From a virus (lineage: Duplodnaviria > Caudoviricetes): 53,290 bases of DNA. How positions within the stretch are numbered: the first letter of the stretch is position 1; every line of letters begins with the position of its first letter. The DNA lies in the IMG/VR virus record IMGVR_UViG_3300033143_003883, positions 1-53,290 of that record; one strand, 5' to 3'. The notes beneath the pieces were generated by a model. It did not search any database, was not told where the DNA came from, and was given only the letters and a program-made list of their open reading frames with translations. Made by a program: the position numbers and the translations under genes. Shown here in pieces: positions 14,856 to 53,184 of this stretch.

Positions 14856-16601
14856 ATGAATAAAAAATGGTTAGATTATGAAATTCAATTACTTAAAAAA
14901 CCTGAATTGACTATAAAAAAATTAATTACCATTTTAAAAAGAACAGAATCCAGTATTAGCAATAAATGTTGTAAATTAAAAATAAAAAAAGATAATAGAA
15001 TATTTTTTTCATCAAAAGAAATTAAAATTTTAAAAAATTCAAAATTAAGTTTTCAAAAATTAAATTGTATTCTAAAAAAAGATATAGAAAGCATTAAAAG
15101 AAAATGCTGGCAATTAAAAATAAAAAGAGAAAAAGAAAGTACTTGGACAAATGATGAAATAAAATTAATTAAAAATGAATTACAGAAAAATAATATATTA
15201 GATTATGACAAGCTTATGATGTTAACTGGAAGAAGCAAATCAAGCCTTAAACATAAATTATCAAGATTAAATTTAACTAATAAATATCCCAATAAAGATG
15301 CATGGAAATCTGAAGAAATTAAACTACTTAAAAATACCAATCTAAGTTTTAAAGATATATCTAAAATAACTGGGAGAACTGTCAAAGCTATTGGAACACG
15401 TTGTGAAAAATTAAGTATTATTAGAAATCCTCGCTGGACTAAAGAAGAAGAAAAAATATTATATAATTTAAATCTTAGTTGCAAAAATTTATCAAAAATA
15501 TTAGGAAAACGGCATGAAACAATTCAAGCTAAAAGACAGCAATTAAACATCAAAAGAGGGCAATATGTTAAATATCCATATAATGATTTTTTTAAATCAG
15601 CCACAAAAACTTCAATGTACGCATTAGGCTTGTGGTGGGCAGATGGGTATATAGATAAACATAGATTTGCTATATCATCATCAAACTATGAACATCTATT
15701 TCAAGTTAAAAATATTATAGGCGTAAAAAGTCCTATTCCAAAAACTTCTTCTAATGGATTTCAATATATAATAGGTCAAAAAGAAATTGTCAAAGATATA
15801 CAAGAAATTTGGGGAGGTAAACCAAATAAAAGTTTAACAGCAACACCACCTAAAAATTTTTCAGAAATATTTTTTTATGATTTTCTTACAGGATTTATAG
15901 ATGGAGATGGCTGGCTTATGATTAGTGGAGCAAGACATTATCCAGATATTGGATGGATTGGCACTAAAGAAATGATGAATTGGATTATAACATTTTTAGG
16001 AAAGCCTACTTATATCAGACAGCATAAAAATGGTCATAATACTTGGTATGTTCATTATCGTGGAGAAAAAGCACAAGAAATAGCAAAAAAATTATATCTT
16101 GATAATCCTCAGCCATATCATATGCAAAGAAAATATAAAATGGCTAAAAAATTAATGCAATGGAAAAGAAAAAGACTACCAAGAAAAAATTACACTTCTA
16201 AAGAAATTTCTTTATTGTATGACACATCATTATCATACAAAATTTTATCTAAAAAATTGAATAGATCTATAAAATCAATAGGCTATAAATGTCAACAATT
16301 AAATATAAAAAGAGATAATCATTGGTCTTTTGAAGAGATTCAATTTATTTCTGACGTTACATTATCCTACAAACAATTATCTCAAAAACTTAATAGATCT
16401 ATTAATTCATTAAGAACAAAATGTTATGCTTTAGATATAAAAAGAAACTTAAGACGTCGTTGGTCTTCTGAAGAGATTCAATTATTATACGATATATCGA
16501 TTTCATATTATCAATTATCTCAAAAACTTAATAGATCTATTAATTCATTAAAAACAAAATGTAGCAAACTTAAAATTAAACGATTAATTCTTAATCAATA
16601 A
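14856..16601 (+). mobile_element. Free-standing LAGLIDADG homing endonuclease with 8 Myb/HTH-like repeats
   Basis: Two LAGLIDADG motifs (YALGLWWADG, FLTGFIDGDG); 5 N-terminal and 3 C-terminal W(T/S)xxE...L..R(S/T)..SI repeats; very Lys-rich. Confidence 0.8.
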
Positions 16602-16611
16602 GGAGAATTAA

Positions 16612-16827
16612 ATGTCAATTGATCCATTAGATACAATAGTAACAAATGTTCAAACACATTTAGCAGATCCAACATTAGACGCAAGTCCTCCTTGGGCATC
16701 TACTGATCATAATAGACGCTTAATTAAAGCTCTTGCTAAAGAATTTTTAAAAGTTCAAATTGAAACCAAAGCGCAGATAGCAGCTGATACAAATGGCGAT
16801 ACAAATCCTCCAGGATCAATCTCATAA
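16612..16827 (+). CDS. Small hypothetical protein, likely baseplate-associated
   Basis: AAGGAG RBS; would directly follow the spike if the endonuclease were absent. Confidence 0.6.
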   Translation: MSIDPLDTIVTNVQTHLADPTLDASPPWASTDHNRRLIKALAKEFLKVQIETKAQIAADTNGDTNPPGSIS

Positions 16828-17540
16828 TGAAAATTACAAAAAATAATTTATCATTTAATGTAATAGATAATTATGCTAATTGTTTCTGGCAGACTTTACA
16901 AGATAATAAATGGGAACCGAATACATTTAAAATATTTGATCAATTTGTTAAATCAGATAAAAATATAATAGATCTTGGTAGTTGGATCGGTCCTACTATT
17001 TTATATAATTCACAATTAGCAAAACATTGTTATGCTATTGAACCAGATCCCATAGCTTTTGAAGTTTTAAGAAATAATGTTAATTTAAATCCATCTTTTA
17101 GAAATAAAATTACTTTATTTAATGGTTGCATAAGTAATCAATGTGGTGTTGTAAATCTTTTTAATAACATATTTGGTAATAGCATGTCTAGCATGATTGA
17201 TAATTGTAAAAAATCTTGCATAGAAGTTCCAAGTTTAACATTGCAAAAATTCATAGAAGTTAATAACATTACTGATTGTAATTTTATAAAAATGGACATA
17301 GAGGGTGGAGAAGTTGTAGTTTTACCAACTATTAAAGATTATTTAACTATTGAAAAAATTACATTGCATTTATCTCTACATTCTCAACTTTTTAATAAAC
17401 AAGATATAGATATTATTATCGAATCATTAATTAACTATGATAATATTTATGATAATAATGGTAGTTCATTGAAGCTAAAAGATTTATCTAATAGATTATA
17501 TAGAGGTGAGCAACCAGATATAGTTTGTGTAATGAATTGA
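16827..17540 (+). CDS. FkbM-family SAM-dependent methyltransferase
   Basis: IIDLGSWIG, YAIEPDP and FIKMDIEGGE motifs. Confidence 0.85.
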   Translation: MKITKNNLSFNVIDNYANCFWQTLQDNKWEPNTFKIFDQFVKSDKNIIDLGSWIGPTILYNSQLAKHCYAIEPDPIAFEVLRNNVNLNPSFRNKITLFNGCISNQCGVVNLFNNIFGNSMSSMIDNCKKSCIEVPSLTLQKFIEVNNITDCNFIKMDIEGGEVVVLPTIKDYLTIEKITLHLSLHSQLFNKQDIDIIIESLINYDNIYDNNGSSLKLKDLSNRLYRGEQPDIVCVMN

Positions 17541-17596
17541 ATATTTAATTAATTTTTCTTAATGTTAAGGGAAGGTTTGCTTTCAAGGATAATTTT

Positions 17597-17992
17597 ATGA
17601 ATATTGAATTGTTAACATTAATTATAAAAATATTATCTCCTATTATAATTGCTTTTACTGGATATATTGGAGCAAAAATAATACAATTATCAAGAAAAAA
17701 AGTAGAAAGACAAGATATTGAAAATACTATATTTATTTTATTTGATATAGCACATAAAACTGTTAAACAAGTATATCAAATAGTCGGAGAAAAAACAAAA
17801 CATGATCATCATGGTCTAAATGAAAATGATATCTTATCACTTAAGCATACCGCAATGGTGAGAATAAAAGAATCTCTACCTAAAAATGTTGTAAAACACA
17901 TACCTAAAATTACAAAAGATTTAGATATATATCTTGATAATTTAATAGAATCAATTATTTACGATTTAAAAAGAATAAAAAATAACGCATAG
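17597..17992 (+). CDS. Probable holin (LL-H-like, single N-terminal TM)
   Basis: Hydrophobic N-terminal helix, then A...V..V.Q and L..LIES.I..LK pattern. Confidence 0.5.
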   Translation: MNIELLTLIIKILSPIIIAFTGYIGAKIIQLSRKKVERQDIENTIFILFDIAHKTVKQVYQIVGEKTKHDHHGLNENDILSLKHTAMVRIKESLPKNVVKHIPKITKDLDIYLDNLIESIIYDLKRIKNNA

Positions 17993-18060
17993 AATGTTGC
18001 ATGGAAAATAATTCTATGCTTAAAAAATAAAAATATTAGAATAATAAAGGAGAATAAATT

Positions 18061-18314
18061 ATGTTATCAAATGATTTAGAAAAAATAGCTGAAAAAATAT
18101 TAAATAAAATAAGTGCAACCAAATTAAAATTTATTGATGTATCTTATGCCGACATGAAAGAAATAGAAAAAATTTTACTTGATAAAAAAACAAATTTTAT
18201 CAATCTAAAATTAATAAAGAAAAATATACGGTGACTATGATAAATGAGTTTGAGGCCAAAAAATTAAAAAATATTTTAAAATCTAAATTTCCTTGGATGA
18301 AAATAAAAAAATAG
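18061..18314 (+). pseudogene. MLS-KIA leader family member, frameshifted at an A7 run
   Basis: Not in the ORF track. AAGGAG RBS, MLSNDLEKIAEKILNKISA..., stop at 18234. One extra A in the run at 18184-18190 extends it as KFYQSKINKEKYTVTMINEFEAKK...PWMKIKK to TAG at about 18314. Confidence 0.6.
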
Positions 18315-18325
18315 GATAAATTATT

Positions 18326-18916
18326 ATGTTTGATTTTAACGGAACTTTTTCACGAGAAGAATTTAATAAGTTTATTGAGTATTTAGATAAACTCAATGAG
18401 GATACAATGTTAAGAATTATTCATTTAACAGCTGAAATATCTAGAGTAGATATTCTTATATTTAAAATATCTGAAGCAGAAAAGAATTTTAATCTAGATA
18501 CAAAAATATCTGAACCATATAATTATTATATGCTTGATTCAAAAGGGAATTGGACAGAAACATTAAATGATTTTGATAGTGGAACTAATAAAATAAATAA
18601 TGATTTATTTCAAATACACAGAAGTGTACAAGACGATGCTGATGTTCAAGTGTTAATGGATGAAATAAAAATTCCATTTAAGAAAAATATTAAAAGACTT
18701 GAACGTGTAGAATATAAATTAAAGAAAGCATTAGATTTAAAAGATCAATTAGAAAAAGAAAAAGAATCTCTAGAAAATTTACAGTCAGGATATAGTGAAA
18801 AGAAAAATGAATTAATACAAGCAGTTAATAATCCAAATCACGAATATCATATAACTAATGATTTAGATTATTTAAGAAATTTAACCCGCTTACCAGCACA
18901 TATGGAGTATGAATAA
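18326..18916 (+). CDS. Hypothetical coiled-coil protein in the baseplate region
   Basis: Open 196-aa ORF with a heptad-like C-terminal half. Confidence 0.7.
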   Translation: MFDFNGTFSREEFNKFIEYLDKLNEDTMLRIIHLTAEISRVDILIFKISEAEKNFNLDTKISEPYNYYMLDSKGNWTETLNDFDSGTNKINNDLFQIHRSVQDDADVQVLMDEIKIPFKKNIKRLERVEYKLKKALDLKDQLEKEKESLENLQSGYSEKKNELIQAVNNPNHEYHITNDLDYLRNLTRLPAHMEYE

Positions 18917-18920
18917 AATT

Positions 18921-19277
18921 ATGTTATCAAAAGAATTAGAAAAAATAGCTAAAAAAATTAATGCTAAAGAAGTAGATAAAGAATGGTTAAAAATGATTAA
19001 TAGTTATATAAAGGGTTTATCAAAAATAAGTGATCATTTGTATAAAAAGGATAATGAAATAAGAAAAATATGGAAAGAACTTGAAGAATATGGTAGTAAA
19101 TTAAATAAAGCAGAAAAAATTCCTTCTCCGGCAGCAACTTATATGCATGAATCAATAGAAAAAATTATTGACATTGCTTGGGAATTAAAAGTAGCAAATG
19201 GCGATATAAATGTTCAAGCTGTTACCTTAAGAAATTCAATAAAAGAATTTGAAAAGGTAATTAAAAAAAATAATTAA
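18921..19277 (+). CDS. MLS-KIA leader family protein
   Basis: MLSKELEKIAKKINA leader; the ORF track start at 18909 is an alternative. Confidence 0.7.
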   Translation: MLSKELEKIAKKINAKEVDKEWLKMINSYIKGLSKISDHLYKKDNEIRKIWKELEEYGSKLNKAEKIPSPAATYMHESIEKIIDIAWELKVANGDINVQAVTLRNSIKEFEKVIKKNN

Positions 19278-19361
19278 TATTACTTCGTCTGCCATGTGTA
19301 GAATGAAATCTTTCATCGTTTTCTCTGAAGATGATGATTGCAATTTTTATTAAGGATTTAA

Positions 19362-20117
19362 ATGTCATACGACTTTCGTTTAAAAGGTAAATGTGATCAT
19401 CATATAGTAAAAGAATATCATACAGTAAATGATGATAGAAAAACTGTACGTTTGGATAGATCTATAACAAATGCTGTAGGCATTAAGTTATATAAAAATG
19501 GATATGAAATTGATAGAAATTCTCAATATTTTCCATGGATATTAGAAAAAGATGAATTATCTGTAGATCCAAATAAAAGAAAAATAGTATTTGTTGATGA
19601 ATTACCATCTGATAATGATTGGGTAGAGGTATCATATTATACATCTCCACAAAATTGTAGAAAATGTCACGGATTAAAAATATTATATGATTTATATTTT
19701 AGCAATACTGGAAAACTTTTAACTGTTAAAAATGAAGAAAAACTTTTACAAGATGTTGAAAAAGCAGTATTTACTATTTTAAATAGTAATCAATATCATT
19801 CATGGTATGGCACTGAAATATATAAATTAATTGGACAAATCAGAAATGATGGATATTTAAAGGCAAGAATAGCAAAAGAAATTAATACTACACTTGAACA
19901 TATTAGAAAATTACAAATTGATCAAAAAATAAAAATTGGTCAAAAGGTTACAAATCGTGAGGCAATAGATAGAATTAGTTCTGTTAATGTAAAGCGAAGT
20001 GATATTGATCCAACTGTATTAAATATAGCAATTGAATTAATTTCAAAAGCTGGTGAATTTGTAGGAATTAGTAATATCGTAAAAACAAGTGATTTTAATC
20101 TATATAAGGGAGTTTAA
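19362..20117 (+). CDS. Baseplate wedge / sheath initiator (gp25-like C-terminal domain)
   Basis: EKLLQDVEK...H.WYGT.I...I.SV.V....DPTVL.I.I gp25/gpW-like pattern; CxxC; upstream of the baseplate J-like gene. Confidence 0.65.
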   Translation: MSYDFRLKGKCDHHIVKEYHTVNDDRKTVRLDRSITNAVGIKLYKNGYEIDRNSQYFPWILEKDELSVDPNKRKIVFVDELPSDNDWVEVSYYTSPQNCRKCHGLKILYDLYFSNTGKLLTVKNEEKLLQDVEKAVFTILNSNQYHSWYGTEIYKLIGQIRNDGYLKARIAKEINTTLEHIRKLQIDQKIKIGQKVTNREAIDRISSVNVKRSDIDPTVLNIAIELISKAGEFVGISNIVKTSDFNLYKGV

Positions 20118-20120
20118 ATA

Positions 20121-20666
20121 ATGTTATCAGATGAAATTATTAAGATAGCAAATAAAATTCAAATATCAAAATTTCCTAATTTTAAACCTGGTGATAAAGT
20201 TAAGATTGATATAAAAATTATTAAAAAAATGAGATTCGCCACAAATAAACCATATTTTATCATGCTTAATCATATTATTAAAGGTTCTGGTGGAACACCT
20301 ACTATTATAAATGTTAACAATATAAAAGGTGAAGCAACTATTACAGAGCATAAACAATCGACAAATAAAATTAACGTACCTTTTGAATCAATTAAAATAG
20401 CTAAAAAAATAATTAAAAGTCGAAATCCAATAAATCTTATTGATAATAATAAAATATATATTGACAAAAAAGATTATGATAAAATTATGAAACACGATTT
20501 TAAAAATGGTAAAAATCCAATGGAATTTGGGCCACTTATGATTGTTTTAAAAAAGAAAAATCCTAAAGGAACTATGATAACAATAATACCTACAAAATAT
20601 TGGAAAGATAATCCATTAAGTCCTAAAAGAGAAGATTTAATTTTAACAATTGGTGATGGAAAATAA
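20121..20666 (+). CDS. MLS-KIA leader family protein; two modules (SH3/KOW-like, then an internal leader)
   Basis: MLSDEIIKIANKI; FKPGDKVKI domain; internal IKIAKKIIKS at 20391. Confidence 0.75.
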   Translation: MLSDEIIKIANKIQISKFPNFKPGDKVKIDIKIIKKMRFATNKPYFIMLNHIIKGSGGTPTIINVNNIKGEATITEHKQSTNKINVPFESIKIAKKIIKSRNPINLIDNNKIYIDKKDYDKIMKHDFKNGKNPMEFGPLMIVLKKKNPKGTMITIIPTKYWKDNPLSPKREDLILTIGDGK

Positions 20667-20679
20667 GGAGAAAAATTTT

Positions 20680-21075
20680 ATGTTATCAGATGAAATTATT
20701 AAAATAGCAAATAAATTATCAAGCAATTCATATATAGATTATTTTAAGAAAGAACAAAAAGAATTTTTTAAAGATTTCAAACAATTTCCTTCAATGGAAA
20801 GCCAATTTAAAATAATAATAAAGATATATGATGAAATTATATATATAGTTGCTAATCCTCTTAAAATAGATAAAAATGATATCAAAAAAATTAAATCAAA
20901 AATAGATAATATACAAGAAAGATTATCAAGTCTTTATTCTGAATATAAAGAATCAATTGGTCCAGTAGATAAAAAAATACTTACTTATCTATATTCTTGG
21001 ATTAAAAGAAATAAAAAACAGCATAAATTCATAGATTTAATAATGAAAAAAGAATTAAATATAAAGGAGAAGTAA
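20680..21075 (+). CDS. MLS-KIA leader family protein
   Basis: MLSDEIIKIANKLSS; AAGGAG at 20665-20670 favours ATG 20680 over the track start at 20650. Confidence 0.75.
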   Translation: MLSDEIIKIANKLSSNSYIDYFKKEQKEFFKDFKQFPSMESQFKIIIKIYDEIIYIVANPLKIDKNDIKKIKSKIDNIQERLSSLYSEYKESIGPVDKKILTYLYSWIKRNKKQHKFIDLIMKKELNIKEK

Positions 21076-21081
21076 TAAATT

Positions 21082-21375
21082 ATGTTATCAGATGAAATAA
21101 AAAAAATAGCTAAAAAAATAAAACAAAGTGCTGTCATTGCTGATTTAACAGATGTAATCCATAATTATGGTGATGCTACTATACATGTTAAAATCGATAA
21201 TGAACAAATGAAAAAAATGAAAAATAAAACATATAATAGAGATGACGCATTTAAAGCTTATGTAAATTTTATTAAATCAGAAAATTTTGGTGATGCTACT
21301 GAAGAAGCAATTGCTAAATCTGCTTTAGATTTAATAGATCTAATAGAACAAAAATTTTTAGAAAATAATCAATAA
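21082..21375 (+). CDS. MLS-KIA leader family protein
   Basis: MLSDEIKKIAKKIKQSA leader; AAGGAG upstream. Confidence 0.75.
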   Translation: MLSDEIKKIAKKIKQSAVIADLTDVIHNYGDATIHVKIDNEQMKKMKNKTYNRDDAFKAYVNFIKSENFGDATEEAIAKSALDLIDLIEQKFLENNQ

Positions 21376-21388
21376 GGAGAAATAATCC

Positions 21389-24241
21389 ATGGCTGCACCT
21401 TCACAACCAATAATTACTACGAATGGAGGAAATAATTATTCAACTAATATTGCAGATTTATTTTTAGAAGGAACTTGCGATATAACTACACATGAAATAT
21501 TAGTTAATAATTCTACAACTGGAGTAACATACACACCAGGCAATACTTCTTGGAACTTTTCTGGTACATTATCCAGAGGAGATAATAATTTTCAAGTAGT
21601 AGCAAAAAATATTTTTGGCGATCCTAGCACTGCTACACTTATTATAATTAAATATGTAGATAAAGCTGATTTAGAAGCTGAAGTATCTGCACCAACTGGA
21701 CTTAGAATGAGAACATTCTCAGATAAAGTCAGATTAAGTTGGGCAGAAAATCCAGAGACAGATATTAAAGGTTATAATGTTTATGGCTCAACATATGCTG
21801 CTGGTGGATTAGAAGGATATAAAAAATTAAATACAAGTCTCATTTCAACTATTGCATTTTTTGAAGAAAAAACTACATTGTTATCTGAAAATATTAATAC
21901 AATAGGTGATATACGAACAACAACTACAGAGGAAAGTATTGAAACTATAAATTATTATAATTATGATCATACAGAATATGAAGGAGAGCCAATTACTGCT
22001 GGAACAAGATATTACTATACTATAACAGCAGTAATTTTTGATTCTATTAGAAATGAAGAAGTAGAATCAGTATATTCAAATGAACTTTTCGCTTATCCTT
22101 TGGCATTATCTACAAATATAGTTGACTTACCTAAAAGAACAATGTTTGAGATTCAAGTTGATATAATTAATAAAATATTAGAATCTAAACCAGATATTGA
22201 TTTGAAACCTGGTGAATCAATGAGAGATATAATGATTGATCCAGTTTCAGATGAATTAGAAAATGCATATTTTATAATAGATTTTTTAAGTAAATCACAA
22301 TCATTTGCGACATTATTACAAATTGATGACGAAAATAATGATGGCGAAACAGATCTAGTTGAAGATTCTGCATATAAGCAATCATTAAAAGAAGCAACAC
22401 ACTTAGAAGAGGATTCAGATGTACAACAATTAGTAGATGATGCATTTGACAAACAATCTCAAAATTATAATACTGTTAGACAAGAAGCAGAAAAATCATA
22501 TGGAGAAATAACTTTTTATTCTATTCAAAGTTCTATTAATCAAAATATTGAATTTGGACCTGCTCAAAACACAAGAATTTCTACATTAGGAGATTCAAGT
22601 GTTGGTGAAAGAGCAATACAATTTGATGTTGTATCGTCTTTAGTTATAACTCCAGCTAATTATCAATCATATTATAACACATTAACTAGCAGATATGAAG
22701 TTACATTACCAATAAGAGCAGCAGAAGCAGGAATAGATGGAAATGTTGAGGCTGGCAAAATAACTCAAAGTATTTCTGGTGTTCCAGCAAATTTTGGTGT
22801 AACAAATCTTGAAAGTACACAATTTGGAACAGATAAAGAAAGTAATCGATCATTAGCAGAAAGAGCACTACTGGTATTAACTTCTCTTGATATAGGAACA
22901 AAAGGTGGATATAGAGGCACAGCATTAAGGATTGTTGGAGTTAATAAAGTAAAAATAGTTGGTGCTCAAGAAGAATTAATGATGAGAGATTATGATCCTA
23001 TTAGACAAAAACATATAGGTGGAAAAGTTGATGTTTATATGCAAGGACAAAGATTAGTAGAAAAAACAGAAACATTTAGTTTTGAATTTAAAGGTGAAAC
23101 AGATGCACAATTTGATGTTTTATCTGCAATCAACATGACAGTACAAACTAGAAATACAGAAGTTATATCAGATTATCCCATATATGAAGTTACACAAATT
23201 AGAAATGTAACAAAAGGATCAGATTATGATTTAACCAATTTAATAATAACTATTGATACATTAGATATTGATGAAACAATTCCTGCTAATTTAGCAATTG
23301 GAATGGCAAGTGGAGATAGAATAGAAGTAGATTATAAATATAGAAAATCAGAAAATTTTATATTTGCGCATCAGCCAGTTATAACATTAAATGATGTACA
23401 AGGTTCTGTAACTGGCAATTTAAATAATAACATTGAATTTTTTCAAACAGAAGATCCATTATTAAATGGAAAAAGTACTGCTGCACAAGATTATTTTATA
23501 ATAAAATATACAGGTGGTATTCCTTCAGGAAATGCAGAAACTTTAACAGTAAAATATACAATCAATGAATTACTTGATGAAGTGCAAGAAGAAGTAAATG
23601 AAAAAAGACATATTACTGCTGATGTTTTAGTAAAAGAAGCAACTGAAATAGGCATAGATGTAGACATGACTGTTTATTTAAAAGAAGCAACAAATAGAAG
23701 TCTTGCAGATTCAAAAATAAGAACGGCAGTTTCTAATCTATTAAATCAAAAAGCAATTGGTCAATCAGTTTATCAATCTGATGTTATAAGAGTGGTTGAA
23801 GAAGTTGAAGAAGTAGATCATGTAGATATACCTTTTACAAAAATGGTTAGAGCTGATGGTGCTATTAGAATAAGAGAAGAAATATCTGCTTCTTGGTCTG
23901 TTTATGACATTGGAATCAAAACATCATTTACTACTGGAGCCGGAGCATTAGAATTTGCTACAATTCTTGGTGGTGGAACAAAATATGAACATAAAGGTGT
24001 ATTCCTTGATGAAATAGAAACCACATTAGTCGATGATCCTAATCTGGTAAAATATTTACCTGGAAGATCATATATAGGTACAAATGGAGAAGTTATAATT
24101 TCAACACCGGATAATACAATGGACAATCATACAGTTATGGTTAGTTATGTTGTATATGGCGAAAGTGGCAGTAAAGATATAGAACTTCAAGGAATGGAAT
24201 TTTTATCATTAAATAATTTAAACATAACTTATGGAATTTAA
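21389..24241 (+). CDS. Baseplate J/gp6-like wedge protein with N-terminal Ig and FN3 domains
   Basis: SAPTGL...LSW..N....I.GYNVY...YYY.ITAV (FN3); D.KPG...RD, G..GNV.AG.I, GTDKESN..L..R and GGKVDVY (baseplate J motifs). Confidence 0.8.
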   Translation: MAAPSQPIITTNGGNNYSTNIADLFLEGTCDITTHEILVNNSTTGVTYTPGNTSWNFSGTLSRGDNNFQVVAKNIFGDPSTATLIIIKYVDKADLEAEVSAPTGLRMRTFSDKVRLSWAENPETDIKGYNVYGSTYAAGGLEGYKKLNTSLISTIAFFEEKTTLLSENINTIGDIRTTTTEESIETINYYNYDHTEYEGEPITAGTRYYYTITAVIFDSIRNEEVESVYSNELFAYPLALSTNIVDLPKRTMFEIQVDIINKILESKPDIDLKPGESMRDIMIDPVSDELENAYFIIDFLSKSQSFATLLQIDDENNDGETDLVEDSAYKQSLKEATHLEEDSDVQQLVDDAFDKQSQNYNTVRQEAEKSYGEITFYSIQSSINQNIEFGPAQNTRISTLGDSSVGERAIQFDVVSSLVITPANYQSYYNTLTSRYEVTLPIRAAEAGIDGNVEAGKITQSISGVPANFGVTNLESTQFGTDKESNRSLAERALLVLTSLDIGTKGGYRGTALRIVGVNKVKIVGAQEELMMRDYDPIRQKHIGGKVDVYMQGQRLVEKTETFSFEFKGETDAQFDVLSAINMTVQTRNTEVISDYPIYEVTQIRNVTKGSDYDLTNLIITIDTLDIDETIPANLAIGMASGDRIEVDYKYRKSENFIFAHQPVITLNDVQGSVTGNLNNNIEFFQTEDPLLNGKSTAAQDYFIIKYTGGIPSGNAETLTVKYTINELLDEVQEEVNEKRHITADVLVKEATEIGIDVDMTVYLKEATNRSLADSKIRTAVSNLLNQKAIGQSVYQSDVIRVVEEVEEVDHVDIPFTKMVRADGAIRIREEISASWSVYDIGIKTSFTTGAGALEFATILGGGTKYEHKGVFLDEIETTLVDDPNLVKYLPGRSYIGTNGEVIISTPDNTMDNHTVMVSYVVYGESGSKDIELQGMEFLSLNNLNITYGI

Positions 24242-24250
24242 GGAGATAAC

Positions 24251-24433
24251 ATGTTATCAGATCAAATTGTTAAAATAGCAGAAGAAATAAAAAATTCAGA
24301 TTTAGAAGATTTTTTATGGGAAGCATACGAGGCAACAGTGGGTTTGAAAATTGCAATTAATAATTCTATAAAATTAAATAAAGATAAAAAAATACAAAAA
24401 ATTTTGAAAAATAATTTGGAATTATTAAAATAG
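24251..24433 (+). CDS. MLS-KIA leader family protein, probably truncated
   Basis: MLSDQIVKIAEEIKNS; its stop codon lies inside an out-of-frame second leader sequence. Confidence 0.65.
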   Translation: MLSDQIVKIAEEIKNSDLEDFLWEAYEATVGLKIAINNSIKLNKDKKIQKILKNNLELLK

Positions 24434-24705
24434 CTGAAGAAATAAAAACAAGTAAAAATAAAACTAGATTAAATTTTTTATATAATACAAAAAATAATAA
24501 ATATTATTTTGATGTTATAGATGGATTTTATGGTCAATTATCACGAGATGCTAAAACTTATGGACCTTATGATACAAAAGAAAAAGCGGAAAAAGCTTTG
24601 ATTCGCATTGTAGGTAAGGATTATAATAAGAATAATGTTGATGATTCAGGCACAATATCGGTTCCAAAAAAAAGTCCTAATGGTACGCCTATTGGAAAGC
24701 CATAA
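24421..24705 (+). pseudogene. Decapitated MLS-KIA leader family gene (no ATG or RBS)
   Basis: Open frame IIKIAEEIKTSKNKTRLNFLYN...YGPYDTKEKAEKAL...PIGKP*, beginning mid-leader; in-frame TAA at 24412. Confidence 0.7.
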
Positions 24706-24742
24706 AAATCAATAATAAAATTATAACATAAAAGGAGATATT

Positions 24743-25240
24743 ATGCAATTATCAGATGAAATTATTAAAATAGCTGAAATAATTAAATCTAAAAAATTTC
24801 CAAAAGAATTAAATCAATTTATAGAAATAATACAAAAATCAAAATCATTCGATGATGCTTTTAAAAAAATACATCAAATTAAAAATGTGCCATTTGTAAC
24901 AAGTCAATTATTTTTTACACTATATAATAAATCTGGAAATTTAACAATAAAACAAGCTTTTAAATTATTTTATGATGATGTTAAAACACAAAAAATAGCT
25001 GAAGAAATTAAAAGTTATAAAGAACCTACTAAAAAAGAAATAGATAAGGTTGTTAAAAAAGTAGAAGATACATTAAAAGATTTTCAAAAAGACTTTAAAC
25101 AAATCCCTAAACTTCCTAAAAATTCTACTAAAGATGAAATAGAAGGATTTAAAATGGTTAAAAAATTTTATAATGATAAAATAAAATTATTAACAAATGA
25201 TTTAGACTATTGGAAATCTTTACAAAAAAATTATAAATAA
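24743..25240 (+). CDS. MLS-KIA leader family protein; two modules
   Basis: MQLSDEIIKIAEIIKS; internal QKIAEEIKS at about 24991. Confidence 0.75.
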   Translation: MQLSDEIIKIAEIIKSKKFPKELNQFIEIIQKSKSFDDAFKKIHQIKNVPFVTSQLFFTLYNKSGNLTIKQAFKLFYDDVKTQKIAEEIKSYKEPTKKEIDKVVKKVEDTLKDFQKDFKQIPKLPKNSTKDEIEGFKMVKKFYNDKIKLLTNDLDYWKSLQKNYK

Positions 25241-25279
25241 AAACAAAATATCAACTAAATAAATAATTGAATAATAATT

Positions 25280-26797
25280 ATGACAACTAATAATTCAAAT
25301 CTATTAAATTTTCAGAAATTTTTAGATTCTAAAGAAATTAAACAAAAAATACAAGAATATAAAAATAAATACTATGAAGTATTATTTAATACTTTGCCAT
25401 CTCCATATAGTATTAATCATCCAAGCTCTAATTATGCTATTTATTTGTCTGAAATAGCAGAAGAATTGGCAAGACTAAGATGTTTAACTGATAGAATTCA
25501 ATTAGATAATTATTTTCAAACAGTTCAACCAATTCTTTTAAGACAAAATCTTGCAACTGTTTTAAATTATGATCAAAAAATACCTTTTGATTGGTCTCAT
25601 GAAAAATATAGAAATTTTTTATTAGCTGTTTTAGAAGTTTTATTAAATGGCTCAACTAAAGAAAATATTAGACGTGCCATACAAATTTTTACATCTTTAG
25701 ATGCTAAAATATCAGAATTTTTAGATTTCATACCATCATTTTTACAAACTAATCTTGGTAGTTATTTTAATAATTTAACATCTCCATTAAATGGTGATGG
25801 TAGAGTTGGTTTTAAAGAATTCACATTTAATGACTCATCTTATCAGAGATTTGTATATAGCGCAGTTGATATATTTGGATTTAGAATAGATTTAAATTTT
25901 GGCACTGGAGATGCAGAAGAATATTTTAGAAGTTGGGCAGATCATTTTCGAGATATTTATTGGCTGCTTGAAATAATTAAACCAGCTCATACATATTATT
26001 TGATTAGAAATATTTTTCAAGAAGATATTAAAATATTAAATAGATTAACTGATAAATTTTTAGTTGGAGTTCGTTGGCATGATGAATTTAGTCAAGGAAT
26101 ATTTAAATTTAATGATCCAGAATCACTTTTTAATAGCACGTTAAAATTATTAAATAAAGCTATATTGTTTGATAAATTAGTAAATGTTAATATACAAATT
26201 AACAACAGTGAAGCTTATAGTAATTCTAATGATCCAAATTCTGGAACTGAAATATTTGCAAATAGCTTTCAATATAATTCTGTTTTAAATAAAGCAATAT
26301 TAAATTATCCTTTAATAAGCAATGAAATAGCAGAAAATGGAGCTGGAACTTGGAATTTAGGTATTTTAACAGATGGGACAGCTAATTGGAAAATAAATTC
26401 ATTGACCGGACTTTGGTTAATAGATAAGGCAAATATAGCAAAATATCACATAACTTCTAATACAAATAATACAATAACTACAACAGGTGGTCCAAATTCT
26501 GGAAGTATTAATTATATAATTTCTCCTAAAGCATTAAATTTAGGTCTTTGGAGTGGTGGAACGATAACAGTTGATAATAATCCCTGGACAAATTATACAA
26601 ATGCATTAAAAGGAGCTATGTTAACTGATATAACTAATACAAATAATTATAGTATAACATCAAACACAAATAATACAATTACTGTAAGTGGTGGACCTGC
26701 AACTGGCCAATCATTTTTTTATATAACTAGAGGATTTATTTTTAATCAAAAAGAAAATACTTCATCTCAATTATGTAAATATTTGATTTTAAAGTAA
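25280..26797 (+). CDS. Baseplate wedge protein (gpI/gp7-like) with C-terminal repeats
   Basis: YR..L....L.GST...I and LEIIKPAHT motifs; two ~60-aa ITSNTNNTIT..GGP repeats. Confidence 0.7.
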   Translation: MTTNNSNLLNFQKFLDSKEIKQKIQEYKNKYYEVLFNTLPSPYSINHPSSNYAIYLSEIAEELARLRCLTDRIQLDNYFQTVQPILLRQNLATVLNYDQKIPFDWSHEKYRNFLLAVLEVLLNGSTKENIRRAIQIFTSLDAKISEFLDFIPSFLQTNLGSYFNNLTSPLNGDGRVGFKEFTFNDSSYQRFVYSAVDIFGFRIDLNFGTGDAEEYFRSWADHFRDIYWLLEIIKPAHTYYLIRNIFQEDIKILNRLTDKFLVGVRWHDEFSQGIFKFNDPESLFNSTLKLLNKAILFDKLVNVNIQINNSEAYSNSNDPNSGTEIFANSFQYNSVLNKAILNYPLISNEIAENGAGTWNLGILTDGTANWKINSLTGLWLIDKANIAKYHITSNTNNTITTTGGPNSGSINYIISPKALNLGLWSGGTITVDNNPWTNYTNALKGAMLTDITNTNNYSITSNTNNTITVSGGPATGQSFFYITRGFIFNQKENTSSQLCKYLILK

Positions 26798-26883
26798 TTA
26801 ATTTAAAAATTGAACAATGAATAATTAATTAATAAAATTTTATAGATAAGACTAGATATATTCTTATCTATAAGGAGAAAAAA

Positions 26884-27399
26884 ATGCTTATCGAAGATAG
26901 AATTAAACAACCATCTTTTCACTTTTTTGCTACAATAACTGATAATAAAACTGGAAAAAAAGAAATTAAAGATTTGGGTCATAATATTATAGTTGATCAA
27001 GTAAGTTTATTAATTGCTCAATTATTAAAAAATGAATCTCCTAATGGCATAACGCATATGGCTATTGGCTCTGGTGATGGTGCTTGGGATATAACTGCTC
27101 CTCCTGCTCCTATAGCTACAGCAACTACATTAGAAAATGAAATTAACAGAAAAGCAATTGCAACTTATGAATATATTGATAGTTCTGGAAATCCAACACC
27201 TACAAGAACAAATATTGTTGATTATACAGCTACTTGGGCAAGCGGTGAAGGAAATGGAACATGGTTAGAAGTAGGATTATTTGGTGGCACTGGTGCTTCT
27301 GCTCCTGATGGTGGAGATATGATCAATTGGCATACATTTCCTGCATTGATTAAAGCTGGAGATATTACTATAAGCTTAACTTGGAGAATAACAACTTAA
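26884..27399 (+). CDS. Tail-collar/fibre-attachment-like protein
   Basis: HNIIV, ITHMAIGSG, T.LENEI.R, E.NG...EVGLF and K......ITW.I pattern. Confidence 0.65.
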   Translation: MLIEDRIKQPSFHFFATITDNKTGKKEIKDLGHNIIVDQVSLLIAQLLKNESPNGITHMAIGSGDGAWDITAPPAPIATATTLENEINRKAIATYEYIDSSGNPTPTRTNIVDYTATWASGEGNGTWLEVGLFGGTGASAPDGGDMINWHTFPALIKAGDITISLTWRITT

Positions 27400-27409
27400 A
27401 TTTTTAAAT

Positions 27410-28912
27410 ATGAAACAATTAATTAAAACATATAATATAAAATTATATAATAATTTACCATTTAAACAAACAATGGAATTGATTAAAAAAGAAGAAAATC
27501 AATTACTTAAATTTTGTTTTAATGATGAAACATTAAAATTATTTAATGATATGGGAATAAAACAATCAAGTAGAATTTTAGCCAATCATATTGTAAGAAA
27601 TACTTTTTTTCCTTCTAGAATATGGAGAGGAATATTAGATACAATTGGCGAAGTTCTTATTTCATTAAATAATAAAAATAATTTATATAAATTTTTAATA
27701 AATCTTAATGATAATCCAGAAAATTGGAATTACAAATTATGTAAAGATAATGGGAAACAATTTATTAAATTAAATTATATTATTATGTTAAAAGAACAAG
27801 CAATGAATTATTTAAAAAATAATAATTCACTTCCTGAATCTTATTTAAAAATGATTAAAATTCCACAATTTAAAAATGCAAAATTATCTTATGCGCCTGA
27901 TGATAATAATGCTATTCGATATGAAATAGCAGAAAATAAGTTAACTGGAGGAATTAAATTATATGATGGAAAAAAATGGAAGTGGTATAATTTAAATTTA
28001 AAATTACCTGTAAAATTAATTAATAAAAAATTTAGAAAACCTAATTTAAGACAAACAAATAATTCTTTTTATTTAGATATTAAATTTGAAGAAATTATAC
28101 AAGAATATAAAGAAACTAACAATATAATTTCTATAGATTGGGGCATCAGAAAGCTATTAACTATTGGAATCTTTGATAGAAATTTAAATCTTTTAACAGT
28201 TCCTAAATTTGTTAAATTTCAAGACATTCATAATAAACTTTATAGAATAAGACTTGACATAGATCACATAAAATCTAAAATAGATAGATTAAAAAATAAG
28301 AAAATAATAAATCATAAAAAAATATATTTTTTAAAAGTTTTAAATAAACAAAGATGGAACAAATTTAATAATCTGCAAAAAGAATTGTCTCATCTTGCCT
28401 CTAATATTATAATAAATTTGTCTAAGATATATGGAGTTTCAGATATTTATATAGAAGATTTATCTAATTTAAAATCACAAACTTATAATAAAAAATGTAA
28501 CTGGAAAATTAATTCAACTGTTAGATCTCAAATTTTTGATAAATTAAAATATAAATGTAAGGAATTTGGTTTTAAATTACATAAAATTAAACCCTATTTT
28601 ACCTCTCAAACATGTCCTAAATCTGGAGCTAAAGGATTAAGATATAAGGATTCAACATGTAAAAAACAAATTAAAGGAGGAGGATTTTTTAAATCTTCTC
28701 ATTATAAAGGAGATAGCGATTTTATTGCTATCCAGAATATAGCAAGAAGAAGTTTAGATTCTTTTAATTTGAATTCTTCAAAACCAACCAAGTATATCTT
28801 GAACGGTATTCCTACTAAACTATTAGAGCAGGGAAGAATTCATTTCAATAGAATTCAGAAACATCTTTTTTCATGGAACTTTCAAGTGAAAGTTAATCCA
28901 TTAAAGTGTTAA
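27410..28912 (+). mobile_element. tnpB: TnpB-like RNA-guided nuclease, 500 aa, no adjacent transposase
   Basis: RuvC-I SIDWG, RuvC-II IEDL, YFTSQTCP and RuvC-III DSD..A..NIA; long tail after RuvC-III that could overlap an omegaRNA. Confidence 0.85.
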
Positions 28913-28967
28913 CTGAATTTTTAAACTAATGGTAATTACTACCTAAAAAATTTTAAAGGAATAAATT

Positions 28968-29237
28968 ATGATGTTATCAGATAAAATTATTAAAATAGCT
29001 GGAAAGATATCTGCAATTATTAATAAAGGTGACGAAGTTAAAATTGATATGAATATTGTTAAAAAACATGATAATTCTCCAGCATATCTAAAATTATTAA
29101 ATAAGGTAATCAAAAAATCCAAGGGAAAACCTGTTGTTATAAATATAGATAATAAATTTGCCGAAATAGCAGCTGATAAATATGATGCTTTATTGGGAAC
29201 TGTTAGAGTACCAATTAAGGCTTTGAATAAAATATAA
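28968..29237 (+). CDS. MLS-KIA leader family protein with SH3/KOW-like domain
   Basis: MMLSDKIIKIAGKISA; body paralogous to the first module of 20121-20666. Confidence 0.75.
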   Translation: MMLSDKIIKIAGKISAIINKGDEVKIDMNIVKKHDNSPAYLKLLNKVIKKSKGKPVVINIDNKFAEIAADKYDALLGTVRVPIKALNKI

Positions 29238-29276
29238 AAAATTATATATAAAAAATTTTAATAGGGAGAATACATA

Positions 29277-30557
29277 ATGGGTGATTTTAGTAGAGATACT
29301 TTTGATCCAACTAAAAATTATAATAAAGTTCTTGCGCAGCAAAATCATGCTTTATTAGATGCTGAATATAATGAATTGCAAGATATAATTAAGCATAGAA
29401 ATAAAAATATTACAAAATCTATATTCGGAACTGGCGCAATCGGTGATGGATATCTTGTTAAATCAACTGGAGTTAATAATACTATAAGAATTAAATCTGG
29501 TATGTTTATTAATCAAGGTGACTATGTACATTTATTAGAAGATTATACTTTATCTGGTTTAACCACTCCAGCAATAGGCGGAGTTAGAATAGATGTTGTT
29601 TATGCAGATTATTATAATGAAGAAATTGATAGTTCAGCAGATACTAATTTAAAAGATCCAGTATTAAATGTTGAAACTTGTATAAGATATAAAACTAAAA
29701 TAGAAATAAAAATTCAAGAAGGCACAGTAGTAGGCGTTACTCCAGCATTGCCAGCAGTTTTAACTGGGCATAATGTATTTATAATTGCTTATCTTGCTAG
29801 ATTAGACGCAGATCCAACAATTACCGATATAATGATACAAGATATGAGAAATGCTCAAGCTGCATGTTTTGTTGAATATGGATTAGAAGTTACTAAGGAT
29901 ACAGGATTTGTATATGATTGGACAGCTGGTGCTGCATATGTGGGCGGTTCTCGATATATAATAACTTCTGGTTCGGGAAATGTTCCGTCATCTAATACAT
30001 CTTATGTTTATATTGATCAAGTAGGTGTCGTACAAGATGCTTTAGCTTTACCTCCAGAATTTCATGTTCCCTTGGCCAAAATAGTTGCTGATGCTACTGA
30101 GATTATTTCAATTGAAGATTTAAGAACTTTTATGCCTGCTATGATGGCTCCTCCAATTGGTTCTTTAGTGCCAGTTATAGCAACTGCATTGCAAGAAATT
30201 AAACCAGTTGCATCAGGAGTAAATAAATTTGATGTAGTTTATGTAAGTGGAGATAATGTATTTGATCAAGCAAATGCTACAATCATATCAACCGCCCTTG
30301 CTAAAGCAATTTTAGTAACAGATCGTGATGTTCATGGCAATGCAACTTTATTATTTAAAGGAACTGTTTTTAATGCTGCCTGGGCTGGTTCATGGAATGC
30401 TAACGATACTTTATATCTAGACACGGCAAATGGTGATATTACTGATGATATTAGTGCTTTTGTAAATAATAATGTTGTACAAAGAATAGGAACTGTGTTA
30501 GATGGCACAGTTGGTGTGATAATTTTCAACCCAAGTGAAGAATTAATCGTTTTATAG
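29277..30557 (+). CDS. Tail fibre/baseplate protein with DUF6519-like N-terminus
   Basis: MGDFSRDTFDP.KNY..V..QQ...LLDAE.NE motif; beta-rich C-terminal domains. Confidence 0.65.
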   Translation: MGDFSRDTFDPTKNYNKVLAQQNHALLDAEYNELQDIIKHRNKNITKSIFGTGAIGDGYLVKSTGVNNTIRIKSGMFINQGDYVHLLEDYTLSGLTTPAIGGVRIDVVYADYYNEEIDSSADTNLKDPVLNVETCIRYKTKIEIKIQEGTVVGVTPALPAVLTGHNVFIIAYLARLDADPTITDIMIQDMRNAQAACFVEYGLEVTKDTGFVYDWTAGAAYVGGSRYIITSGSGNVPSSNTSYVYIDQVGVVQDALALPPEFHVPLAKIVADATEIISIEDLRTFMPAMMAPPIGSLVPVIATALQEIKPVASGVNKFDVVYVSGDNVFDQANATIISTALAKAILVTDRDVHGNATLLFKGTVFNAAWAGSWNANDTLYLDTANGDITDDISAFVNNNVVQRIGTVLDGTVGVIIFNPSEELIVL

Positions 30558-30725
30558 TATCTAACTTATTGAAAAATAAGATATTTTATATATTCTTTCC
30601 TCTATATATGCTATTTCTGCATATTTTTTCAAATTCTATTAACATTTTACTATTTTTATCGTATAATATAATAGAAGAAAGGAAAAATTATGCTAAATAT
30701 CTATCTAACTTATTGTAAAATAAGA
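30558..30725 (+). repeat. 24-bp direct repeat pair (30558-30581 and 30702-30725) flanking a promoter
   Basis: TATCTAACTTATTG(A/T)AAAATAAGA with one mismatch; internal dyad CTTATT-N4-AATAAG. Confidence 0.7.
30639..30667 (+). promoter_or_regulatory. Sigma70-type promoter
   Basis: TTAACA-17 nt-TATAAT. Confidence 0.7.
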
Positions 30726-37366: not shown

Positions 37367-38050
37367 ATGTCAGAACATTTAAATATCGGCAAAAGAATGA
37401 AAACATATGAAAGATGTGCAGAATTTATCTTGCCAAAAAGAATACCTGTTATCGTTAGAATTGATGGTCGAGCATTTCACACAATAACAAGAAAAAGATT
37501 TGGAAAAAATTGGAATATTGAATTTGTAGAACAAATGATAGAAGTAGCAAAAACAGTAGCTAAAGATATGTCTTGTAAATTTTGTTATTCACAATCTGAT
37601 GAAATTAGTTTTCTTTTAACAGATTATCGAACCATACATTCTCAAGGATTTTTTAATTATGATATTAGAAAGATAATATCAATATCTGCTTCTCTTGCTT
37701 CTTCAGTGTTTACCAGATTACATGGACGTAATGTTTGCTTTGATAGTAGATGTTTTTCGCTTCCTCAAGATGAAGTCTGTAATTATTTTCTTTGGAGACA
37801 ATTAGATGCAACTAGAAATGCAATTCAAATGGCAGGAAGAGAATATTTTTCTCATAAGCAATTGCATAAGAAAACTTGTAATGATATACAAGAAATATTA
37901 TTTCAAGAATATGGAATTAATTTTAATGATTATCCTGTTATTCGTAAAAGAGGATTTTGTATAGTTAATGGAGAATTAGATAAAGAAATACCTTTATTTA
38001 ATAAAGATAGAGAATATATTAAAAAGCATGTTTATATAAGAGAAGATTAA
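37367..38050 (+). CDS. thg1: tRNA-His guanylyltransferase Thg1-like protein
   Basis: RMK.YE, VRIDGRAFH, QSDEIS, FDSR and YF.WRQ.DA.RN motifs. Confidence 0.92.
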   Translation: MSEHLNIGKRMKTYERCAEFILPKRIPVIVRIDGRAFHTITRKRFGKNWNIEFVEQMIEVAKTVAKDMSCKFCYSQSDEISFLLTDYRTIHSQGFFNYDIRKIISISASLASSVFTRLHGRNVCFDSRCFSLPQDEVCNYFLWRQLDATRNAIQMAGREYFSHKQLHKKTCNDIQEILFQEYGINFNDYPVIRKRGFCIVNGELDKEIPLFNKDREYIKKHVYIRED

Positions 38051-43110: not shown

Positions 43111-43113
43111 TTT

Positions 43114-52690: not shown

Positions 52691-52945
52691 ATCAATCATC
52701 CATATTTAAAAATATGGATCTAAATCGTGAGATTTAGAGGCAACTGGTTGACTAGGGAGCTTTTATGAAAAAGCAGAAGTTACAAGCAAAGTTAAAGAAC
52801 ACACCAAGGAATACTTCTCTAGTTCCTTGCTCTGTAAATTCTGGATTAAACAGAGATCAAAGTCTCAGTGTTCAGAATAAAGTACGGACTTGTAACAATC
52901 CCGAAGAGAATCAATTTCAGCATACAGAGAGGCCATTAAAGCCAT
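52691..52945 (+). ncRNA. Putative IscB omegaRNA (HEARO-like) / element end
   Basis: Begins ATCAATCA, able to pair with TGGTTGA; nested hairpins ATCCATATTT/AAATATGGAT and CTAAATC/GATTTAG; GC elevated; directly upstream of a PLMP ORF. Confidence 0.7.
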
Positions 52946-52947
52946 TG

Positions 52948-53184
52948 GTGTATGTACTATCAAAAAGAGGAAAACCATTAATGCCTTGTTCTTGTGCCAA
53001 GGCAAATAGAATGCTGAAAAAAGGAGCAGCAAAAGTAATTAAAAGATTTCCATTTACTATTCAATTAAATTTTACTTGCAAAAATAGGATTCAAAAGATC
53101 ACACTAGGAATAGATCCAGGATATGAAAATGTAGGTATCAGTTGTATTACTAAAACAAAAGAATTATTTAGTGCTAGTATATAA
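52948..53184 (+). pseudogene. iscB: Truncated IscB/IsrB (PLMP domain plus RuvC-I only)
   Basis: VYVLSKRGKPLMPC..AKA..ML..G.AKV....PFTIQL...LGIDPG; stops before the Arg-rich bridge helix. Confidence 0.85.

Follow-up and report, generated by a model that had tools for sequence, protein, structure and literature searches.

What does a short common leader do at the front of small, otherwise dissimilar proteins encoded among the baseplate genes of a tailed phage? The question is raised by the virus record IMGVR_UViG_3300033143_003883 (Duplodnaviria; Caudoviricetes), an assembly of one contig of 53,290 bp, called the window below. A preliminary description of this DNA had reported eight gene starts with a common amphipathic N-terminal leader and had proposed that the leader is a packaging tag, analogous to the capsid-targeting sequence (CTS) of phage T4, which loads small effectors into the virion and is cleaved after a Ser or Ala. 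All eight starts are present as described. With about even confidence we read the leader as a portable docking or address helix, carried on recombining cassettes of late proteins and probably aimed at an assembling part of the virion; its removal by a protease is not supported.

The eight intact genes give the leader consensus M-LSxx(I/L)xKIAxx(I/L), with L2, S3, K8, I9 and A10 the same in every aligned sequence and either Ile or Leu at positions 6 and 13. One beheaded open reading frame (ORF) and two internal relics, none of them in the preliminary description, bring the leader copies to 11, grouped in four clusters from 18061 to 29237. An IUPAC pattern of the leader DNA, with two mismatches or fewer, matched seven sites, against a mean of 0.00 in 100 dinucleotide-preserving shuffles; the 24743 leader reads MQLS and so lies outside this pattern. 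When the whole window was scanned in six-frame translation with a 16-column hidden Markov model (HMM) of the leader, the eight members scored 24.5-31.7 bits and the top non-family segment 4.6 bits. No leader copy was found beyond 18061-29237 and none in the replication module, as had been claimed. The family units are as follows, with lengths in amino acids (aa) and nucleotides (nt) and with the isoelectric point (pI) where it stands out:

18061..18234, + strand: member 1, 57 aa; leader MLSNDLEKIAEKI (28.8 bits), closest to that of 18921 (35/39 nt).
18921..19277, + strand: member 2, 118 aa from the leader ATG (24.5 bits), between the conserved 18326 gene and the gp25-like gene.
20121..20666, + strand: member 3, 181 aa, composite, made up of leader, SH3-like barrel, internal relic and a further C-terminal body.
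20680..21075, + strand: member 4, 131 aa; its leader matches that of its neighbour 20121 at 36/39 nt, its body is unrelated.
21082..21375, + strand: member 5, 97 aa, mildly acidic (pI 5.65), ending 14 nt ahead of the baseplate J gene.
24251..24433, + strand: member 6, 60 aa, starting 10 nt past baseplate J; its terminal TAG lies within the shortened leader of the next unit.
24415..24705, + strand: beheaded member, 96 open codons, with leader residues ~6-16 kept (12.9 bits).
24743..25240, + strand: member 8, 165 aa, starting MQLS, composite, made up of leader, first body, internal relic and second body.
28968..29237, + strand: member 9, 89 aa, starting MMLS, leader plus SH3-like small barrel.

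Member 2 has an alternative in-frame ATG at 18909. In the beheaded unit (24415-24705, frame 3) the ribosome-binding site, the ATG and the first five leader codons are gone, and its open run is longer than any off-frame run in the long genes (n=1703), the longest of which has 53 codons. Either a deletion has produced it recently or it is an orphan ORF. A programmed -1 frameshift joining 24251 to it was considered and rejected, as no canonical slippery heptamer was seen on reading the sequence, and the unit is therefore treated as a deletion product. Both internal relics correspond to the second half of the leader and use the codons AAR-ATA-GCW for Lys-Ile-Ala, as all other copies do. The relic in 20121 covers ~residues 89-104 (~nt 20385-20432), at the end of the SH3-like small barrel (~residues 20-96) that is homologous to 28968; that in 24743 covers ~residues 81-95 (~nt 24983-25027) and scores 7.7 bits in the HMM, where the leader of the same gene scores 24.6. 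From this arrangement the 20121 and 24743 proteins (p20121 and p24743) look like in-frame fusions of two cassettes.

The edges of the leader are sharp in the DNA. Mean pairwise nt identity over +1..+39 is 78.8% within the family and 39% between other gene starts; over +40..+78 it is 36.5% against a background of 33%, and over -15..-1 it is 47% against 38%, a similarity of the Shine-Dalgarno type only. The conserved block begins at the ATG, is in frame and stops near codon 13-16, and the leaders most alike are those of adjacent genes (18061/18921 and 20121/20680). The preliminary description had allowed that the conservation might be purely nucleotide-level; this is not what we found. At the core codons 2, 3, 6, 8, 9, 10 and 13 the proportion of nonsynonymous differences (pN) is 0.057 and that of synonymous differences (pS) is 0.325, a 5.7-fold excess, which indicates that the constraint acts on the peptide, as a trend and not a proof, given a basis of 12 codons in eight non-independent sequences. 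At the solvent-side codons 4, 5, 7, 11 and 12 the two values are 0.345 and 0.257, and codon 7 occurs as ATT, GAA, AAA or GTT.

The peptide itself is likely a capped amphipathic helix that starts at Met1 and has Ser3 as its cap, to judge from the spacing of its residues. Hydrophobic residues stand at positions 2, 6, 9, 10 and 13 (4-3-4 spacing), acidic residues follow Ser3 and basic ones come later; the eight intact leaders have hydrophobic moments of 0.54-0.74, against 0.30 +/- 0.14 in the N-termini of 43 other genes. The claim that the similarity ends at a Ser or Ala stands in part: such a residue occurs within residues 14-19 in 8/8 members vs 18/41 other genes (chance ~0.003, in a test framed after the data had been seen), but its position varies from 14 to 19. 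A fixed position for cleavage after Ser/Ala, as proposed earlier, was thus not found.

Behind the leader the bodies are indeed mostly unrelated. They are 40-165 residues long in whole proteins of 57-181 aa, and only one of 36 pairs is related, the other 35 having a shuffle z <= 3.0. The related pair is 20121 and 28968 (z = 12.2; E = 1.5e-11 in a small database). A profile of this pair, built from p20121 and the 28968 protein (p28971), was searched against 1.84 billion representatives and found 35 other proteins at E <= 1e-3, four of them at E <= 1e-10. These form an SH3-like domain family (P0125-P0159) whose domain of ~70 residues is either standalone (72-109 residues) or C-terminal, and to which only the 20121 and 28968 bodies belong among the window proteins; no Pfam family was matched by the domain in the 10 family members scanned. 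AlphaFold2 (AF2) modelled p28971 from a 30-row alignment with a mean predicted local distance difference test score (pLDDT) of 87.5; the body reached 93-96, and leader residues 1-15 had a pLDDT of ~50 and lay unpacked against the domain. Although Foldseek returned nothing at E <= 1e-3 for this model in PDB or BFVD, its top rows were NdhO- and KOW-like small barrels, which places the confidently modelled body among the SH3/KOW-like small barrels. ESM Atlas models of the 20680 protein (p20680) and p24743 are a helical bundle (predicted template modelling score, pTM, 0.69) and helical (pTM 0.46), so that in the predicted structures one leader precedes at least two different folds. An ESM Atlas feature search gave no usable match for p24743 or p20680. 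The AF2 model of p20121 came from a 2-row alignment and is unusable (pLDDT 36), and a predicted complex of three p28971 copies scored 0.01, which gives no verdict and is evidence neither way.

The bodies had also been suggested to be anti-defence or host-takeover effectors. No such family was matched when nine bodies were compared with PHROGs, Pfam and PADLOC; nothing was found at E <= 1e-3 save a weak PADLOC match, in which p20121 residues 4-92 (leader and SH3-like domain) align to the last 90 residues of each of two RT-Protease_XI models (E = 3.4e-5 and 5.7e-5). Going by this alignment, the small barrel may also stand at the end of a defence-associated reverse transcriptase. Basic charge is not distinctive of the family either: a pI above 9 was calculated for 7/9 family units vs 21/43 other genes, in a Lys-rich proteome with a median pI of 8.95.

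Between unrelated gene starts pS is 0.506, and between the leaders it is 0.305, below saturation. Because of this value, and because 35 of the 36 body pairs are unrelated, the leader copies either arose later than the bodies or are held similar through gene conversion, and at the level of sequence the leader looks like a young or homogenised portable module. In our reading the 13-16-residue amphipathic helix heads a fast-turnover family of small accessory proteins and would gather their unrelated bodies at a single shared binding site, which most likely lies on a virion part under assembly; that part could be the prohead core, as with the T4 CTS, or the baseplate. The choice of a virion part follows from co-expression with such parts and from the T4 precedent: the genes are tightly packed in the late baseplate operon and therefore are probably made late, together with virion parts. 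In the DNA, the 39-45 nt of near-identical leader also act as the unit that is duplicated and recombined. New cassettes appear beside old ones, the leaders staying alike and the bodies differing, and deletions fuse or behead neighbouring cassettes. This reading builds on what is observed in the window, namely the anatomy of the leader, its constraint at the protein level, its portability, its lineage specificity and the fusion of its cassettes.

The surroundings of the family were laid out by PHROG and Pfam scans of 50 ORFs. The GC content of the window is ~25%, and the + strand carries 54/54 ORFs of a greedy non-overlapping set. The tail and baseplate genes around the family are:

2167-4917: sheath gene of the contractile-tail module (PHROG/Pfam).
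19362..20117, + strand: gp25-like sheath initiator, a conserved frame gene with a homologue in 77/80 related loci.
21389..24241, + strand: baseplate J-like wedge protein, a conserved frame gene that served as the query for relatives.
25280..26797, + strand: conserved frame gene, next after J in relatives, with a homologue in 64/80 loci.
26884-27399: tail-fibre-network component (PHROG/Pfam).
29277-30557: fibre-like gene (PHROG/Pfam).

In this late structural operon the gaps to neighbouring genes are 3-14 nt in most cases. The earlier statement that the leader genes sit in gaps between conserved late structural genes holds for the clusters 20121-21375 and 24251-25240; it does not hold for 18061, whose upstream neighbours are non-conserved genes, or for 28968, whose upstream neighbour is a TnpB-like gene. 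The latter (27410-28912; Cas12f1-like TNB domain, PHROG transposase) lies between the tail-fibre-network gene and 28968 and begins 10 nt past the upstream stop, which leaves little space for a normal insertion-sequence left end. Counts of promoter-like sites (126 vs 117.8 +/- 9.6 in shuffles) and terminator-like sites (3 vs 2.8) in 16500-30700 were uninformative.

The frame genes allowed the locus to be compared with its relatives. A single J protein gave no match to viral contigs, and an 18-sequence J alignment was used to fetch 80 loci around J homologues from IMG/VR (1.42 Mb in total). In these loci tblastn matched the gp25-like gene 77 times, J 80 times, the gene after J 64 times and the 18326 gene 43 times; it gave no match for any of the eight leader genes. 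The leader motif is absent from 80/80 of the loci and from five whole related records (374 kb in total). The gp25-like-to-J distance is 1272 nt here vs a median of 220 and a maximum of 988 in 75 loci, and the distance from J to the next conserved gene is 1039 nt vs a median of 74.5 and a maximum of 883 in 64 loci; distances were taken between the ends of high-scoring segment pairs and are upper bounds on the true gaps. As the relatives have none of the leader genes and both spacings are wider here, the leader genes are insertions specific to this lineage, made at junctions where the closest relatives have little space. Their GC content at third codon positions (0.111) matches that of the structural core genes (0.105), and they are therefore long-resident or home-grown genes and not recent imports.

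Relatives of the J protein at 30-45% identity number in the hundreds, and the largest contigs that carry them reach several hundred kb, but its matches among deposited phages are only four records, which stand for three phages: an uncultured 485-kb phage, Tunturiibacter phage Tunturi_5 (309 kb) and Bacillus phage G (498 kb). One related contig is 192,712 bp long and has an estimated completeness of 44%. From these sizes the window is probably about one eighth of a ~400-kb genome. On the same 192,712-bp contig (G002) the region L097:5418-16173 carries four minus-strand genes (112-254 aa) whose proteins start MK(T/I)RxG(F/Y/H)VSNSSSSSF. Here blastp aligns residues 1-20 only, in 3/6 pairs (three genes each vs the fourth); no pair aligned past residue 20, and no Pfam match was found for the four. 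This is a further family with a shared leader in this clade of phages, unrelated to the one in the window. A generic scan of the 80 loci for shared N-termini had hits in eight loci, which looked like similar-length long-ORF pairs or minus-strand repeat frames.

Other parts of the window have further genes of note. A tail-module block at 14856-17992, without a tblastn match in the 80 related loci, encodes a 581-aa helix-turn-helix/endonuclease/D5-like protein, a 71-aa ORF, an FkbM-type methyltransferase and a holin-like membrane protein. The replication module contains helicases, a primase, a split DNA polymerase III (Pol III) alpha, a UvsY-like protein, a single-stranded DNA-binding protein (SSB), RecA/UvsX and SbcCD. 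An intein interrupts the helicase gene at 31110-33374 (Intein_splicing domain at residues 169-420, with a PHROG HNH endonuclease match). Pol III alpha (41893-45723) consists of two adjacent ORFs (405 + 869 aa), and the second ORF has a C-terminal uracil-DNA-glycosylase-superfamily match. A Thg1-like tRNA-His guanylyltransferase gene lies at 37367-38050 in the same module; ARAGORN found no tRNA gene in the window. Near the end of the contig a HEARO RNA (Rfam RF02033, 107.9 bits) at 52691-53184 overlaps an ORF with an RRXRR domain and PHROG HNH-endonuclease matches, which is cut off by the contig end. We take such an RNA together with such an ORF to be the mark of an IscB-type RNA-guided nuclease element, here within a phage.

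The one sequence outside the window in which we found the leader belongs to another uncultured phage: P0128, a JGI protein of 284 residues whose contigs reach 62 kb. It reads, in order, as ankyrin repeats, a stretch resembling a translated ribosome-binding site, Met plus leader, and the SH3-like domain, and on this layout it is probably two genes read as one. Its identity with p28971 is 54% overall and 9/10 in leader residues 1-10. Within the SH3-like family only P0128 has the leader; the others have no N-terminal helix or a dissimilar one. A search with p28971 alone gave one candidate, itself. The leader DNA pattern had 0 hits in viral contigs, and blastn of 18000-25300 against 50,697 phage records gave no match. 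Six loci that matched the DNA pattern in metagenome contigs and five in genome contigs were rejected as chance by reading frame, context and a GC content of 31-47%. With a pattern of the SH3-like family, 1/2 matches in a viral scan encoded a relative and no locus was returned; none was found in genome contigs.

Several of our results weigh against a portable helix addressed to the virion. Besides the narrow basis of the codon comparison, the synonymous sites of Leu2, Ser3 and Ile9 are invariant (Ser3 is TCA in 8/8, genome share 0.29; Ile9 is ATA in 8/8, share 0.45), and some nucleotide-level constraint or gene conversion is therefore also present. No fixed protease-type site follows the leader, Glu being found at position 11 in 3/8 and at position 5 in 5/8 members. 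No head, scaffold or prohead protease gene was found among the 50 ORFs scanned on the 53-kb contig. A profile of the eight proteins, run against 5.8 billion proteins, gave 7418 candidates, of which only the window's own four had E <= 0.01, and P0128 is the sole outside sequence with the leader. Distant standalone SH3-like homologues often have, judged by eye, a short N-terminal amphipathic helix of their own, so for this body the leader may be a native or old companion of the domain and not a graft; a few of these helices resemble the leader by eye, and the leader HMM scores none of them. Likewise, the top structural neighbour of the p20680 model was aligned from residue 1, and the leader there may be no more than a stretch of helix 1 in the modelled bundle.

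How far the comparison with T4 can be taken bears on the first alternative. Passages of PMC9026906 describe the T4 CTS as an N-terminal propeptide of 10-19 residues that binds the prohead core and is cut off by gp21 after L/I-X-E, and the T4 internal proteins as 8-20 kDa, basic and poorly conserved among relatives; the T-even internal proteins are portrayed in part of PMC3012670 as a diverse set of defence proteins in which only the CTS is conserved. Like the CTS, the window leader is a short peptide from Met1, within the 10-19-residue range, that is common to small, otherwise unrelated proteins. Its near-identical nt block has equally sharp edges: the best window pairs agree at 35-36/39 nt with the next 39 nt at background, and T4 ipII and ipIII, which were taken together with ipI from NC_000866, agree at 30/30 of the first 30 nt and at 19/60 of the next 60. 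In both cases the set of tagged genes differs between related phages, as these passages describe it for the internal proteins of T4 and its relatives (PMC9026906, PMC3012670). The location in a baseplate operon does not speak against a head destination, since T4 ipI adjoins the tail/baseplate genes 57A, 3, 53 and 5 (NC_000866). The proposed analogy with T4 thus stands for the anatomy, but it does not extend to the sequence, which is non-homologous (best leader HMM score against IPI, IPII and IPIII, -3.0 bits), or to a conserved protease site, the window leaders having no conserved Glu as the L/I-X-E site given in passages of PMC9026906 would require. The window also differs from T4 in having 9-11 copies between baseplate genes, with some cassettes fused or beheaded, and in belonging to a clade of ~400-kb phages and not to the T4 group. 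In T4 the CTS is found also on Alt.

A strict T4 arrangement is a sub-case of the docking-helix reading and accounts for about half of the confidence that we place in it. In it the leader would bind the prohead scaffolding core and be cut after the Ser/Ala by the prohead protease, and the bodies would be ejected effectors. We consider it somewhat unlikely. The ipII/ipIII-like anatomy agrees with it, as do the place of T4 ipI beside tail/baseplate genes, the protein lengths of 57-181 aa with a pI above 9 in 7/9 units, which recall the small basic internal proteins in passages of PMC9026906, and the T-even diversity behind a conserved CTS in the part of PMC3012670 cited above. Against this, the leader HMM scores -3 on the T4 CTS, neither Glu nor another residue is conserved at the leader end and the Ser/Ala shifts between 14 and 19, no head, scaffold or protease gene was found among the 50 ORFs scanned, a basic pI is common here (21/43 others above 9; median 8.95), and no body falls in an anti-defence or takeover family.

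Other loading signals were compared as well. In phage P1 the first 30 residues of DarB suffice to carry a reporter into the capsid, according to passages of PMC9024508; that signal is N-terminal like the window leader, but the same passages place it on DarB, a 250-kDa protein, and not on a family of small genes (PMC9024508). In the Photorhabdus virulence cassette, an extracellular contractile injection system (eCIS), N-terminal signal peptides on payloads are loaded by the Pvc15 AAA ATPase, as parts of PMC11495950 and PMC10097599 describe, and here too N-terminal peptides address unrelated payloads to a contractile-tail machine. Unlike an eCIS, the window is from a replicating phage with a tape-measure-type tail. 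The payload signals of eCIS are much longer than the window leader. No Pvc15-like AAA ATPase was found in the tail/baseplate module (Pfam and PHROG, 50 ORFs), P-loop proteins being confined to the replication module. Receptor-binding proteins of phages join a conserved anchor domain to a large body, a fibre or a spike, whereas the bodies here are barrels or helical, of 40-165 residues, behind a common part of 13-16 residues. No description of the leader motif came up in the literature, which was searched for T4 and eCIS loading signals and not for the motif; this does not prove the motif new to print. The leader would be a non-homologous variant of a known tag type and is seen in one uncultured phage and one outside protein.

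A second alternative assumes no common address at all: the leader would be the native first helix, or a self-association helix, of tandem-duplicated paralogues whose bodies have diverged or been replaced while gene conversion keeps the 5' ends alike. The close likeness of neighbours' leaders fits it, and so do the standalone SH3-like homologues with amphipathic N-terminal helices of their own, the alignment of p20121 residues 4-92, leader included, to the RT-Protease_XI C-terminus (E = 3.4e-5), the structural neighbour of p20680 aligned from residue 1, and the 4-3-4 hydrophobic spacing, which, as read from the sequence, suits helix-helix packing. We nevertheless think it quite improbable. The body folds differ (barrel vs helical), the leader is unpacked on the barrel in the AF2 model, and the fall from ~79% identity to background within a few codons speaks for recombination or grafting and not for gradual divergence. 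The invariant Ser3, Lys8 and Ala10 suggest specific recognition over generic amphipathicity.

The leader could also be a nucleic-acid element, either a translation-initiation or operator region with a common regulator, of which T4 RegA is an example, or a recombination handle only, the peptide being incidental. For such an element one can cite the invariant TTA, TCA and ATA at codons 2, 3 and 9 despite synonymous alternatives, the 188/233 same-codon pairs vs 128.8 expected from codon usage, a leader pS below saturation, and the cassette fusions, which show that recombination acts here. It is very unlikely in our view, as the block opens at the ATG itself and keeps to the reading frame throughout, core pS is 5.7 times pN with codon 7 free to vary among ATT, GAA, AAA and GTT, the sequence before the ATG is no more alike than ordinary ribosome-binding sites, P0128 retains the peptide at 54% overall identity, and no Rfam family was matched at the leader region. 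Away from the virion, the helix might instead bind one host protein, or the membrane as an amphipathic anchor, and draw the various bodies there late in infection. The high hydrophobic moment (0.54-0.74) would suit this, and so would genes that are accessory, restricted to the lineage and quick to evolve, traits frequent in genes for host interaction. It is nonetheless highly doubtful: mean hydrophobicity is near zero with no aromatic residues in the helix, the invariant polar residues argue for protein recognition, and the tight packing in a structural operon would be left unexplained.

Returning to the portable docking helix, we can extend it to a two-level device, although this larger proposal is improbable as a whole. 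The peptide would serve as a virion-loading ticket, and the ~40-nt DNA that encodes it would serve as a homology handle for the capture, duplication, shuffling, fusion and loss of cargo. If this were true, the phage would possess an arsenal of injected proteins that renews itself much as an integron does, at any late-operon junction and without a dedicated recombinase, and the second leader family on the 192,712-bp contig would imply that such systems are common in the clade, with a different tag in each. The particles of giant phages contain many proteins, and only for a few model phages is it known how these are chosen for loading. The leader on its cassettes would be a compact packaging or docking tag, and would also show how sets of accessory proteins can be renewed within structural operons that are otherwise frozen. 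Should it load particles, the family would provide a ready set of candidates for injected proteins in an uncultured lineage; should it dock proteins on the baseplate, it would represent a new way of decorating the tail.

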